Shown one piece after another: positions 3,513 to 47,319 of a stretch of 64,000 bases of DNA. The translations under genes and the position numbers were made by a program. Positions within the stretch are counted from its first letter, which is position 1; each line of letters starts with the position of its first letter. Source of the DNA: Escherichia coli 042 (GTDB lineage: Bacteria > Pseudomonadota > Gammaproteobacteria > Enterobacterales > Enterobacteriaceae); the NCBI RefSeq assembly GCF_000027125.1, contig NC_017626.1. One strand, written 5' to 3'. Below the pieces are notes generated by a model. The model was not told the origin of the DNA and did no database searches. It worked only from the letters and a program-made list of their open reading frames with translations.

Positions 3513-4223
3513 TTATTGGGTTGCAGTAACTGCTGTAGTCCAGGCCTGATTAAACGCCTGATGCTGTGCCGGTAATGGCGCAATCAGTTTGTTATATTCA
3601 CTTGCCTGCTGCGAAGTCGGGAACTGGATGCCATTTGCGACAAAGCTCACCTGAGTACCTTGCTGAGCAATGTAGTCTCCAACCATCACCAGTTGTTGCG
3701 TGAAAGTTTGTGCCGCCGGAATCAACGGTTGCAACGCATCAGCTGGCGTCGTTACCACTTTGGTGAATGCCTGATCGAAGACCGGTTTCAGGTCATCGCT
3801 CTGTTTTAGCGCAGAGTGCGCAGCATCGGCCTGCAACTTCGCATTTTGCAGCTGTTGCGCCAGTACACCCAGAGAACCGTTCATTTCACGCAGTGGGCCG
3901 CTTTGCGTAACGTAATCCTGCGGTACGCGAATTGCGTTAACGCTGTCTACAACCGGGCGCAGACCGGAATCCATCGCCTGATTCACCTGCTGTGAATAAC
4001 CATACAGAATCGCGTAATCAGAGACAAAAGGACCAAATTGTTTTTTCTGATCGGCAGTCAGGGTAGGTAGACGTTCACCGCTACGCATCACTGTATTCTG
4101 CAGGAAGTCGATAAACGCTTTACGCTGATCGCCTTCTTTATCAAAACACCCACTCAGGCTAACTACCATTAATAACGCCGCAAGAGGCGCAAACCAGCGA
4201 GAGCAGGACTTTCCTGTCGCCAT
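3513..4223 (-). CDS. yiaF: Lipoprotein YiaF (DUF3053)
   Basis: Start at MATGKSCSRWFAPLAALLMVVSLSGC (lipobox) with AGGAG SD upstream; 236 aa; track ORF over-extended by 40 codons. Confidence 0.88.
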   Translation of the reverse strand: MATGKSCSRWFAPLAALLMVVSLSGCFDKEGDQRKAFIDFLQNTVMRSGERLPTLTADQKKQFGPFVSDYAILYGYSQQVNQAMDSGLRPVVDSVNAIRVPQDYVTQSGPLREMNGSLGVLAQQLQNAKLQADAAHSALKQSDDLKPVFDQAFTKVVTTPADALQPLIPAAQTFTQQLVMVGDYIAQQGTQVSFVANGIQFPTSQQASEYNKLIAPLPAQHQAFNQAWTTAVTATQ

Positions 4224-4656
4224 TTTCTTACTCCTTTCACCCAAAAAAAGCGCACAACGACACACGCGTGTCTGACGTGACAAGGATAGTCCAGGACAAG
4301 CTTGCAGGATACCCTTTCTACGTAATCTTCCTGGTAAAATCATGGAGAAAATGAAACAAGGTTAATTTGTTGTTTCATTGTTAAAAAATGATAGTGCCGT
4401 TGCTTTTTTTGTTGCCAGAGATTAACGCCTTCTCAGAACGTTAGATTTTCGAAATCTTTACAAACCGGGAGTGGTAAGAGATATATCGGCATTTATCAGA
4501 TCGTTAGGTGGCTATAAGTCACGCTAAATGACTGGCTGAATCGAATCATAGCCAGAGCATGCCCTGACTACACCCCGCTGTGTCTGTTTTTCCCGACTAT
4601 TCTTAATGAGCTTCGATGCAATTCACGATCCCGCAGTGTGATTTGAGGAGTTTTCA

Positions 4657-4947
4657 ATGGAATATAAAGATCCAATGCATGAGCTGTTGAGCAGCCTGGA
4701 ACAGATTGTTTTTAAAGATGAAACGCAGAAAATTACCCTGACGCACAGAACAACGTCCTGTACCGAAATTGAGCAGTTACGAAAAGGGACAGGGTTAAAA
4801 ATCGATGATTTCGCCCGGGTTTTGGGCGTATCAGTCGCCATGGTAAAGGAATGGGAATCCAGACGCGTGAAGCCTTCAAGTGCCGAACTAAAATTGATGC
4901 GTTTGATTCAAGCCAACCCGGCATTAAGTAAGCAGTTGATGGAATAG
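4657..4947 (+). CDS. yiaG: XRE-family HTH transcriptional regulator YiaG
   Basis: 96 aa ORF with HTH_XRE-like segment (LRKGTGLKIDDFARVLGVSVAMVKEWE). Confidence 0.85.
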   Translation: MEYKDPMHELLSSLEQIVFKDETQKITLTHRTTSCTEIEQLRKGTGLKIDDFARVLGVSVAMVKEWESRRVKPSSAELKLMRLIQANPALSKQLME

Positions 4948-5031
4948 ACTTTTATCCACTTTATTGCTGTTTACGGTCCTGATGACAGGACCGTTTTCCA
5001 ACCGATTAATCATAAATATGAAAAATAATTG

Positions 5032-5061
5032 TTGCATCACCCGCCAATGCGTGGCTTAATG
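5032..5061 (+). promoter_or_regulatory. cspA: cspA promoter (-35 TTGCAT / -10 CTTAAT) with AT-rich UP element upstream
   Basis: ttgcatcacccgccaatgcgtggcttaat precedes a ~160 nt leader before the cspA ATG at 5228; matches the recalled cspA promoter architecture. Confidence 0.7.
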
Positions 5062-5227
5062 CACATCAACGGTTTGACGTACAGACCATTAAAGCAGTGT
5101 AGTAAGGCAAGTCCCTTCAAGAGTTATCGTTGATACCCCTCGTAGTGCACATTCCTTTAACGCTTCAAAATCTGTAAAGCACGCCATATCGCCGAAAGGC
5201 ACACTTAATTATTAAAGGTAATACACT

Positions 5228-5440
5228 ATGTCCGGTAAAATGACTGGTATCGTAAAATGGTTCAACGCTGACAAAGGCTTCGGCTTCATCACTCCTGACG
5301 ATGGCTCTAAAGACGTGTTCGTACACTTCTCTGCTATCCAGAACGATGGTTACAAATCTCTGGACGAAGGTCAGAAAGTGTCCTTCACCATCGAAAGCGG
5401 CGCTAAAGGCCCGGCAGCTGGCAACGTAACCAGCCTGTAA
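5228..5440 (+). CDS. cspA: Major cold shock protein CspA
   Basis: 70 aa [38 protein letters not shown]... with RNP1/RNP2 cold-shock domain motifs. Confidence 0.98.
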
Positions 5441-5468
5441 TCTCTGCTTAAAAGCACAGAATCTAAGA

Positions 5469-5497
5469 TCCCTGCCATTTGGCGGGGATTTTTTTAT
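5469..5497 (+). terminator. cspA rho-independent terminator
   Basis: Hairpin ccctgccatttggcgggg followed by a run of 7 T. Confidence 0.7.
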
Positions 5498-5627
5498 TTG
5501 TTTTTCAGGAAATAAATAATCGATCGCGTAATAGAATCTAGTGTTATTTTTGTGAAGAATAAATTTGGGTGCAATGAGAATGCGCAACACCGTAAGAAAG
5601 GCGGGAATAATTTCCCGCCGAAGACGC

Positions 5628-5780
5628 TTACTCTTTCAATTTGCAGGCTAAAAACGCCGCCAGCTCATAACTCTCCTGTTTAATATGCAATTCACACAGT
5701 GAATCTCTTATCATCCAGGTGAAAAATAAAAGCGTGAAACAAATCACTATTAAAGAAAGTAATCTATATTTCTGCGGCAT
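5628..5780 (-). CDS. hokA: Hok-family type I toxin HokA (small membrane peptide)
   Basis: 50 aa MPQKYRLLSLIVICFTLLFFTWMIRDSLCELHIKQESYELAAFLACKLKE; Hok/Gef family. Track ORF extends 20 codons further upstream in frame. Confidence 0.85.
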   Translation of the reverse strand: MPQKYRLLSLIVICFTLLFFTWMIRDSLCELHIKQESYELAAFLACKLKE

Positions 5781-6060
5781 TCCCAGCCCCCTGTGTTGAT
5801 TTCCAACGAGTAAGAGGCTAACCTTATGGTGTCTATGCATAGAGGGGCCTCACTTTGATTTATAGTCAGGTGGGGCTTTTCTCTGTCTGCCTTTCGGTGA
5901 ATACCTGAGACAAACAGTCTCAAGCACCCGCAGCTATTCTAGCTTAATAAGTTCGTTTCTTCTCCTTGATATAATCCTAAAAAAATCTCATAAAATTAAT
6001 ATATGAGACAATCTTTATTCAGCAGAAGATTATTAAAGGTTGCTCTATTATTTAGCGATA

Positions 6061-6090
6061 AAAAAGCCTGCCAGATGGCAGGCTTTTTAA
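6061..6090 (-). terminator. glyQS rho-independent terminator (bidirectional hairpin)
   Basis: aaaaa-gcctgccagatggcaggc-ttttt immediately downstream of the glyS stop; U-tract on both strands. Confidence 0.75.
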
Positions 6091-6101
6091 TAATGGCGTT
6101 A

Positions 6102-8171
6102 TTACTGTAACAGCGAAATATCCGCAACGCGCAGGAACAGTTCGCGCAGTTTCTCCAGCATGGTCAAACGGTTGATACGCAATTCTTTGTCATCAACCAT
6201 GACCATCACTTTATCGAAGAAGGCATCAACCGGTTCACGCAGCTCTGCCAGTTCGACCAGCGCATCCTGGTAACGACCTTCCGCAAAGTACGGCTCCAGC
6301 TTGTCACGTAGCACCACAACCTGCATCGCCAGTTTAATTTCTTCCGGCTCTTTCAGAGTAGAGGCATTCACGCGGTCGCTCAGCACTTCGTCAGATTTCG
6401 CCAGAATGTTAGATACACGCTTGTTCGCCGCCGCCAGTGCTGCAGCTGCATCCAGGGTACGGAAGTGCGATACCGCTTTCATTCGGGCATCGAAATCAGC
6501 CGGACGAGTCGGACGACGCGCCAGTACCGCCTGGATGGTGTCAACAGTGTAACCTTCGTCCTGATACCAGGCGCGGAAGCGACCGAGCATAAAGTCGATA
6601 ACATCATCAACCACGTTGGCATTTGTCAGCTTATCGCCATACAAACGCACCGCTTCTTCGGTCAGGGTTTGCAGGTCAAGATTGAGGTTCTTCTCAACGA
6701 TAATACGCAGCACGCCAAGTGCGGCACGACGCAGCGCAAACGGGTCTTTGTCGCCTTTCGGATGCTGACCGATACCGAAGATACCCGCCAGAGTATCCAT
6801 CTTGTCAGCAATCGCCAGCGCACAGGCTACCGGGTTAGACGGCAGGTCATCACCGGCAAAGCGCGGCTGATACTGCTCGTTCAGCGCCACTGCAACATCT
6901 TCCGCTTCGCCATCGTGACGCGCGTAGTGCATCCCCATAACGCCCTGGGTGTCGGTGAACTCGAAGACCATGTTGGTCATCAGGTCGCACTTGGACAGCA
7001 GGCCCGCACGGGTTGCGTGGTTAACGTCAGCGCCAATCTGTTCAGCAATCCAGCCAGCCAGCGCCTGGATGCGGTCAGTTTTGTCACGCAGTGTGCCAAG
7101 CTGTTGCTGGAACAGCACGGTTTGCAGACGCGGCAGATTATCTTCCAGACGTTTTTTACGGTCGGTGTTGAAGAAGAACTCGGCATCCGCCAGACGTGGA
7201 CGAACGACTTTCTCGTTACCAGAGATAATTTGCTGCGGATCTTTCGATTCGATGTTGGCAACGAAGATAAAGTTCGGCAGCAGTTTGCCGTCGTTCGCAT
7301 ACACCGGGAAGTACTTCTGGTCACCTTTCATGGTGTAAACCAGCGCTTCAGACGGCACCGCGAGGAATTTCTCTTCGAATTTTGCGGTCAGCACAACCGG
7401 CCATTCCACCAGCGAAGCGACTTCTTCCAACAGGCTTTCGCTTAAGTCAGCGTTACCGCCAATCTTACGCGCCGCTTCTTCGGCATCGGCTTTAATCTTC
7501 GCCTTACGTTCTTCGTAATCGGCGATGACTTTCCCGCGCTCACGCAGAATTTCCGGGTATTGATCGGCATTGTCGATAGTGAATTCCGGCTCGCCCATAA
7601 AGCGGTGGCCGCGAATCACGCGATCGGACTGAATGCCCAGAATGGTAGCCGGAATAACTTTGTCGCCCAGCAGCAGGGTCACGGTGTGCACCGGACGCAC
7701 GAAGTGCACGTCGCTTGCACCCCAGCGCATCAGTTTCGGGATCGGCAGTTTCGCCAGCGAAGTCGCAACCATATTCGGCAGCAGTGCTTCGGTGCTTTCG
7801 CCCTTCACGTGGGCGCGATACAGCAGCCATTCACCTTTATCGGTAGTCAGACGCTCAGCCTGGTCAACGGTAATACCGCAACCACGCGCCCAGCCTTCTG
7901 CCGCTTTGCTCGGTTTGCCTTCAGCGTCGAACGCCTGGGCAATCGCCGGGCCGCGTTTTTCGATTTCACGATCCGGTTGCGCTTCCGCCAGGTTAGCTAC
8001 TTTCAGCGCCAGACGACGCGGAGCAGCAAACCATTGAACGGTGCCGTGTGCGAGGCCAGCGTTATCCAGCTCCGCAGTAAAGTTCGCAGCAAAGGACTCA
8101 GCCAGGCTGCGCAGTGCTTTTGGTGGCAGCTCTTCAGTGCCGATTTCCACCAGAAAAGTTTTCTCAGACAT
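6102..8171 (-). CDS. glyS: Glycine--tRNA ligase beta subunit
   Basis: 689 aa [20 protein letters not shown]...; matches recalled GlyS. Confidence 0.97.
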
Positions 8172-24658: not shown

Positions 24659-24772
24659 GCCTGATGCGCTACGCTTATCAGGCCTACATGATTTCTGCAA
24701 TATATTGAATTTGGTAGAATTTGTAGGCCGGATAAGGCGTTTTAGCCGCATCCGGCATAAACAAAGCGCACT
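24659..24772. repeat. REP/BIME cluster
   Basis: gcctgatgcgctacgcttatcaggcctaca and gtaggccggataaggcgtt...gccgcatccggca REP-type palindromes. Confidence 0.75.
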
Positions 24773-39803: not shown

Positions 39804-39926
39804 GTCCGGTATTCCATTTTAAAATAAGATAAAAAAGAGTCGGCATAGTAATGCTTACAATTTCTCCGGTGCAAGATTCATATTTATATAGTAATATATA
39901 AAATTATATATAATTGGGCTGTTGCG

Positions 39927-47130: not shown

Positions 47131-47227
47131 AACACACTCCTGAAAGTGTAAAAAAGGGCGGGCAGCTTACTGAGGATTTTCATTCAAAAATATGATCAGT
47201 ATTATTGATTATCAAAATTAATCTAAT

Positions 47228-47267
47228 AAAAAGCACATTGTATTCATTAAACAATGTGCTTTTTTTA
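47228..47267 (-). terminator. selAB operon rho-independent terminator (bidirectional hairpin)
   Basis: Perfect 10-bp stem agcacattgt / acaatgtgct with 9-nt loop, flanked by A-run and T-run. Confidence 0.7.
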
Positions 47268-47319
47268 AATTCATAAGAATTTTGTATTAATTTATTTTAA
47301 AACTTAATTAATCATTTCC

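Follow-up and report, generated by a model that had tools for sequence, protein, structure and literature searches.

The segment between yiaG and cspA in Escherichia coli 042 raises two questions: whether a promoter with hexamers as poor as those found there, followed by a long leader, can be identified as the cspA control region, and how such a region could couple CspA output to temperature. It was analyzed here within a 64,000-nt stretch of contig NC_017626.1 (the window), to which all coordinates refer unless a locus is named.

The original prediction had recognized a cspA promoter and leader from the letters of the sequence and had named alignment to the characterized cspA untranslated region (UTR) as its test beforehand. 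No divergence was found in that alignment. Positions 4948-5227, covering promoter and leader, were 100% identical to E. coli K-12 MG1655 (NC_000913.3), and over a 553-nt comparison the sole differences from K-12 were two synonymous changes (GAC/GAT and GGC/GGT), both in the CDS and thus outside the control region. In the K-12 record the gene is annotated as cspA (b3556) and lies in the same yiaF-yiaG-cspA-hokA context as in the window, the flanking genes yiaF, yiaG, hokA, and glyS being those of the K-12 cspA locus. Downstream, K-12 differs by an IS150 inside the hokA/mokA locus that is absent from the window, which leaves the control region unaffected. The Rfam family RF01766 (cspA thermoregulator) matched 5068-5495 (+) across model positions 1 to 428 of 428 with a score of 498 bits (E value, 7.7e-142; gathering score, 78 bits), and the match was recovered again when the whole window was scanned with Rfam. 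By its score over the full model the segment is a member of RF01766, and it holds the leader, CDS, and terminator of a CspA-family gene. The region was found in 5,422 of 5,426 complete E. coli genomes, and in 5,402 of these 5,422 the leader with the first codons (5069-5260) was at least 99% identical. No result obtained in this analysis contradicted the cspA identification; its weak points concern mechanism. We put the probability at about 97% that the region is the canonical cspA promoter and long leader, in which poor hexamers are accompanied by an UP element and a TGn motif and the leader takes part in two temperature-dependent folds. The features of the region and its neighbors are as follows.

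4657-4947 (+): yiaG CDS, the upstream neighbor of cspA
4973-4997 (+; hairpin at 4973-4994): hairpin and T-run read from the sequence, with a 9-bp stem ACGGTCCTG/CAGGACCGT and the loop ATGA
5007-5031 (+): A/T-rich UP element, about -62 to -38, abutting the -35 hexamer; 88% A/T versus 49% for the window
5032-5037 (+): -35 hexamer TTGCAT, identical to K-12, 17 bp from the -10 hexamer
5052-5060 (+): extended -10, with TG at 5052-5053, one base, and CTTAAT at 5055-5060; placed by motif location and conservation
5068-5227 (+): cspA 5′ untranslated leader, 159 to 160 nt; placed by the Rfam model start and K-12 identity
5071-5087 (+): cold-box stem-loop GGUUUG-ACGUA-CAGACC, 6 bp; helix 1 of the Rfam consensus
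5075-5085 (+; +7 to +17): cold box TGACGTACAGA, placed by motif location
5191-5203 (+): upstream box GCCGAAAGGCACA, 12 nt upstream of the Shine-Dalgarno sequence; positions 5191-5200 form a small GCC/GGC hairpin
5215-5218 (+): Shine-Dalgarno sequence AAGG, 9 nt before the ATG
5228-5440 (+): cspA CDS, a 213-nt open reading frame (ORF) of 70 amino acids and a stop codon, ending in NVTSL; the protein is identical to K-12 CspA
5240-5253 (+): downstream box ATGACTGGTATCGT, within the cspA CDS
5465-5495 (+; 5465-5492 in the scan): intrinsic terminator of cspA, a 12-pair stem and T-run; found by the terminator scan and as the last RF01766 helix
6102-8171: glyS, following the hokA locus

Most of what had been described from the letters was therefore located as described: the TTGCAT/CTTAAT pair, the A/T-rich block ahead of it, a leader of about 160 nt before the ATG at 5228, and the cold-box element within that leader. 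The TG of the extended -10 was absent from the earlier description, and of the interval given there for the leader and its upstream element (4995-5227) the right edge stands, while the left edge falls on the T-tail of the 4973-4994 hairpin and off the promoter. That hairpin is probably the intrinsic terminator of yiaG and would form the left bound of the cspA control region, as suggested by its stem and T-run; its GGCCG/GACCG-TTT motif was kept in the orthologues described below, and it was missed by the terminator scan because the T-run is short. The cspA control region in this genome is already known and shows no sequence difference from the K-12 reference. As it is among the best-studied bacterial control regions and is present here in canonical form, it carries little weight as a discovery; it anchors the window at yiaG-cspA-hokA-glyS and serves as a positive control, in that a real promoter and leader were recognizable from raw sequence. 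The cspA control region is also the basis of commercial cold-shock expression vectors.

In every listed RefSeq genome other than K-12 (H1 to H17), the cspA CDS was labeled [quoted passage not shown] This name conflicts with the K-12 cspA annotation and looks like an automated naming error, given that the protein is identical to K-12 CspA and lies at the cspA locus. Three further ORFs overlapping the region were rejected as genes. One of 34 amino acids (5029-5133, +) begins upstream of the transcription start, and two that are antisense to cspA, of 37 amino acids (5089-5202, -) and 141 amino acids (5165-5590, -), were without support.

The core hexamers themselves are poor. They matched the consensus at three of six (-35) and four of six (-10) positions, and 2,404 hexamer pairs at least as good were counted on the two strands of the window; alone, they are weak, common, and not above chance. 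A consensus promoter scan of the window did not call the cspA promoter, as its -10 hexamer lacks an A at position 2, and this miss is a limit of the scan and no evidence against the promoter. The A/T-rich block is wider than the listed element, spanning 5004-5033, and 5007-5031 was one of 17 such blocks in the 64 kb. When the hexamers and the TGn motif were required together with a block having 22 or more A/T among 25 positions, only two places were found on both strands (128 kb), one of them cspA. The features of the characterized cspA promoter were all present, namely, identity to K-12, an A/T block abutting the -35 hexamer, and a TG one base before the -10 hexamer. What is decisive for the identification of the promoter is the combination of K-12 identity, the full-length Rfam match, and motif conservation across genera.

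Within the UP element, AAAATA at 5022-5027 (-47 to -42) formed an invariant core in 24 sequences from five genera, with variable surroundings. The position of this A-tract is presumably where the proximal alpha-CTD subsite (Estrem et al.) would be expected. The cspA promoter resembles UP promoters of the rrnB P1 type in its A/T block abutting the -35 hexamer and its conserved A-tract at about -47 to -42, but its core hexamers are much weaker and it relies in addition on an extended -10 of the TGn type. Phadtare and Severinov reportedly described the importance of this motif for promoter function in 2005. The role of the UP element in transcription is taken here from the literature: the title of Mitta et al. 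(1997), as cited in PMC6386945 and PMC4956666, states that the AT-rich UP element is required for cspA transcription. FIS and H-NS footprints have been found on the cspA promoter, where FIS, H-NS, and ppGpp act at 37°C (PMC4877382).

The RF01766 model begins at 5068, 8 nt past the -10 hexamer, which gives a leader of 159 to 160 nt, and published lengths of the cspA UTR are 159 nt (PMC6719143) and 160 nt (PMC6386945). A rough check is offered by an HpaII fragment that has been used as the cspA promoter from -145 to +165 (PMC4877382). Its ends fit two CCGG sites in the window: the one downstream, at 5232, places +1 at 5068-5069, and the one upstream, at 4918, disagrees by about 5 nt. We infer a start at 5068 or 5069. 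The leader has the features of the cold-box class of csp leaders, being long, with a cold box near its 5′ end and a downstream box past the start codon. The upstream box is said to act as a translation enhancer, as reported by Yamanaka et al. in 1999.

Orthologues were sought by scanning a single genome from each species (298 Gb) with a gapped pattern of 21 bases, a cold box and an upstream box 90 to 120 nt apart, which returned 25 loci. Of these, 23 were cspA orthologues from Escherichia, Citrobacter, Salmonella, Intestinirhabdus, and Enterobacter. The other two, L008:1158-1277 and L028:1052-1173, came from metagenome-assembled genomes labeled Clostridia and Erysipelotrichaceae and were set aside as chance matches, since neither had a csp gene or other similarity; they illustrate how often such patterns give false positives in 298 Gb. 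One orthologue, truncated at the edge of its locus, was excluded from the identity ranges and from the full-length alignment, leaving 22 complete sequences. Because the search pattern demanded an exact match to the cold box and the upstream box, the invariance of both among these sequences is circular, and the exact pattern also biased the set toward close relatives; conservation outside the two boxes is not circular.

Leader length in the 22 complete orthologues was 158 to 164 nt. Leader identity to the window ranged from 80 to 100% and was at least 90% in all but Enterobacter sp. kpr-6, and CDS identity ranged from 93 to 100%. The 80 bp upstream of the start were 62 to 95% identical, falling to 62 to 76% outside Escherichia. 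In the window and all 23 orthologues, AAAATA, TTGC, TG, and TTAAT were invariant and at fixed spacing, with variation in the spacer and the distal upstream DNA. The AT following TTGC was kept in the 24 sequences apart from Enterobacter sp. kpr-6, for which the aligner placed a one-base gap in the other rows. Also invariant among the orthologues was AAAGGTAAT at the Shine-Dalgarno sequence, and the cspA terminator, which forms the 3′ end of the 428-nt transcript, was conserved. All six pairs of the cold-box helix were invariant in 22 distinct sequences, although the partners in the 3′ arm lie inside the search pattern and are hence fixed by it. The middle of the leader (∼5090-5190) was at least 90% conserved among Escherichia, Citrobacter, and Salmonella, far above the neighboring intergenic DNA and near the level of the CDS. 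Conservation of this degree would allow for a further function, such as a stable 5′-UTR-derived regulatory RNA or a factor-binding platform, but we consider this very improbable, and no positive pointer to an extra function of ∼5090-5190 was found.

BLAST searches with the leader against E. coli genomes did not return the paralogous csp leaders among the matches listed. The regions of the cold-inducible K-12 paralogues cspG, cspB, and cspI were fetched by their coordinates and aligned with the window region. All three share with cspA the A-rich block before TTGC, with AAA-TAA kept and TTGC invariant in the four genes, as well as an extended -10 of the TGCGTTAAT type and an invariant AAAATGACTGGT in the downstream box. 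The cold box (GGTTTGA..ACAGA) is common to cspA, cspB, and cspG and was largely absent from cspI in the alignment; likewise, cspB and cspG carry the upstream box GCCGAAAGGC as in cspA, whereas cspI has GCCCAAGGGC. The central 100 nt of the leaders were poorly alignable, and the mean column identity of 68% derives mostly from the boxes. The csp leaders are long, at 145 to 160 nt, in the source that defines the cold-box class (PMC6719143). Those of cspB, cspG, and cspI have been described as RNA thermometers in which the ribosome-binding site becomes free at 10°C, switching between a long stem-loop and a register-shifted short one, an architecture that differs from that of cspA (PMC13271884).

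The second question, how the region could respond to temperature, turns on RNA structure. The original prediction had assigned the role of RNA thermosensor to the cspA 5′ UTR. The thermosensor itself stands on the literature, and the assignment to the UTR alone does not: the whole mRNA, including the proximal coding region, is involved. In the Rfam consensus, the leader segment 5093-5137 is paired with codons in 5259-5296, and 5141-5160 pair with 5212-5230, covering the Shine-Dalgarno sequence and the AUG, with the Shine-Dalgarno sequence itself pairing with 5154-5157. Pairing between leader and codons means that the structured unit is the mRNA and not just the UTR. Chimera experiments have shown that the proximal coding region is needed along with the UTR (PMC6386945).

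Folding at 10 versus 37°C, which had been proposed as a check, gave a split result. For the first 189 nt, ViennaRNA predicted two alternative optimal folds with a crossover near 28°C, and the Shine-Dalgarno sequence had a mean unpaired probability of 0.31 at 10°C versus 0.03 at 37°C, so that the low-temperature fold of this fragment is predicted to be the more open one. For the full mRNA, the optima at 10 and 37°C differed in long-range pairing and were less than 2 kcal/mol apart over the range of 5 to 45°C, a gap small enough that an ensemble of the two folds would be expected. An open ribosome-binding site was absent from the ViennaRNA predictions for the full-length mRNA, in which the Shine-Dalgarno sequence and AUG were paired at every temperature tested; simple thermodynamic prediction thus does not reproduce the open cold form derived from probing. 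These predictions would fit an RNA poised between two folds and are not counted as proof. The leader with 30 further nucleotides showed no extra stability over shuffled sequence (z = -0.18). Among the 22 distinct orthologues, 94.1% of cells were paired versus 93.9% after shuffling, and no compensatory double change was found in the helices that involve the leader; the orthologues are too close for this covariation test of the Rfam structure to be informative.

The two folds and their effects on translation and stability are drawn from published work. The cspA mRNA was named a thermosensor by Giuliodori (2010, as cited in PMC9947658, PMC6386945, and PMC4956666). In cspA mRNA made in the cold, a large loop holds the Shine-Dalgarno sequence and weak helices hold the start region, both being partly occluded at 37°C (PMC9947658). 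Whatever the temperature, fragments of 137 and 187 nt take the fold of the cold form, suggesting a co-transcriptional intermediate that becomes trapped (PMC9947658). In cells at 37°C both folds coexist, with the translatable one at about 58%, and after cold shock only the translatable fold is left (PMC13271884). The coexistence of both folds in vivo at 37°C implies a shift in an ensemble and no on/off switch, and induction cannot be explained entirely by temperature sensing in the RNA, since most of the mRNA at 37°C is already in the translatable fold.

Taken with the sequence features, this work suggests a mechanism in which a σ70 promoter with poor hexamers would be made strong by the UP element and the TGn extended -10. 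The UP element would be contacted by the alpha subunits of RNA polymerase, and transcription would proceed from 5068/5069. The mRNA would then take two alternative folds involving the leader and the first part of the coding region. One, with a fairly open ribosome-binding site, would be favored in RNA synthesized in the cold and would resemble the co-transcriptional intermediate; the other, in which the Shine-Dalgarno sequence and AUG are partly buried, would be favored at 37°C. On a drop in temperature the population would move to the translatable and more nuclease-resistant fold, the 5′ cold-box hairpin would help mRNA stability, and CspA output would go up. Like the ROSE and fourU thermometers, cspA mRNA changes structure around the ribosome-binding site with temperature and without a protein. 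In ROSE and fourU elements, however, a short hairpin occludes the Shine-Dalgarno sequence and melts open on warming, the opposite polarity to cspA, which picks between two long-range folds of which the translatable one is favored in the cold. Neither a ROSE nor a fourU thermometer was among the 12 Rfam matches at an E value of ≤1 in 4000-6500.

Other explanations can be offered for the promoter and for cold induction. That the hexamers and A/T block are a chance resemblance, with the real start elsewhere, would fit the three-of-six and four-of-six hexamer matches, the failure of the consensus scan, and the 2,404 equal pairs in the window. It is almost certainly wrong: the sequence matches at every base the K-12 promoter, which has been mapped by experiment, and AAAATA, TTGC, TG, and TTAAT form invariant islands at fixed spacing across five genera that are shared with cspB, cspG, and cspI. 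The Rfam transcript model, moreover, begins 8 nt downstream of the -10 hexamer, and the HpaII fragment ends fit +1 at 5068-5069, apart from the offset of about 5 nt at the upstream site. For the leader, cold induction could act mainly through mRNA decay, with fast nucleolysis at 37°C that is slowed in the cold, where the cold box would protect the transcript. The reported half-life of cspA mRNA is 12 s at 37°C versus more than 20 min after cold shock, a stabilization that contributes heavily to induction (PMC4956666), and the title of Xia et al. (2002), as cited in PMC1636342, has the cold-box stem-loop stabilizing the mRNA at low temperature. The 5071-5087 hairpin is invariant in all orthologues, part of it being fixed by the search pattern, and a translatable fold that is already the majority at 37°C in vivo (PMC13271884) also points this way. 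Against decay as the main route, the cold form is reported to be better translated as well as less degradable (PMC4956666), and its binding to 30S subunits in purified systems is better by a factor of about 2.5 (PMC9947658), an effect that cannot come from decay. We hold decay as the chief cause to be a serious candidate that falls a little short of even odds, and it complements the thermosensor model rather than excluding it.

The leader might instead be chiefly a feedback target, with CspA and other Csp proteins binding the cold-box region and other sites and tuning transcription elongation or translation of their own mRNA. CspA footprints have been found on its own mRNA, including site 1 (nucleotides 12 to 36), which adjoins the cold box; CspA helps ribosomes along the 37°C form of that mRNA and raises its translation about 2.5-fold at 15°C (PMC9947658); and the cold box is common to the coregulated cspB and cspG. 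The cold form, however, is bound extensively by CspA without a change in its translation (PMC9947658), and the temperature-dependent structure is present in protein-free RNA (PMC9947658 and PMC13271884). Feedback as the leader's chief role is possible, but we lean against it; it is an added layer and no replacement for the reading of the leader as part of an mRNA with two temperature-dependent folds. Translation control, mRNA stabilization, and Csp feedback all act via the leader.

Several other features were observed in the window. Downstream of cspA, a hokA/mokA/sokA type I toxin-antitoxin locus (5628-5929, -) is apparently intact; the HokA sequence forms the end of a 70-amino-acid ORF (5628-5840, -), and the Rfam family sok matched 5778-5929 (-) with 120 bits (gathering score, 59). 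The window is without the IS150 that interrupts the K-12 hokA locus, where mokA is a pseudogene. A conserved 23-codon ORF at 5579-5650 (+) corresponds to K-12 ysaE; hokA, encoded on the other strand, shares its 3′ end with this ORF. A subthreshold match to the enterobacterial small RNA (sRNA) STnc370 (48.3 versus 54 bits) was obtained at 6028-6094 (+), in the interval from the hokA locus to the end of glyS. The matched segment covers a GC-rich hairpin that has A- and T-runs on its flanks and probably represents a bidirectional terminator rather than an sRNA gene. Farther along, 24680-24722 (-) gave a marginal match to the Rfam sRNA family ES036 (CssrF), at 38.9 bits (gathering score, 37.6; E value, 3e-4). 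A/T blocks of at least 22/25 were also located at ∼39810-39918, 47198-47318, and 57582-59420, and the block at ∼39907 (+) also has promoter-like hexamers with a TGn motif. These other blocks may represent further strong promoters or horizontally acquired AT-rich DNA.
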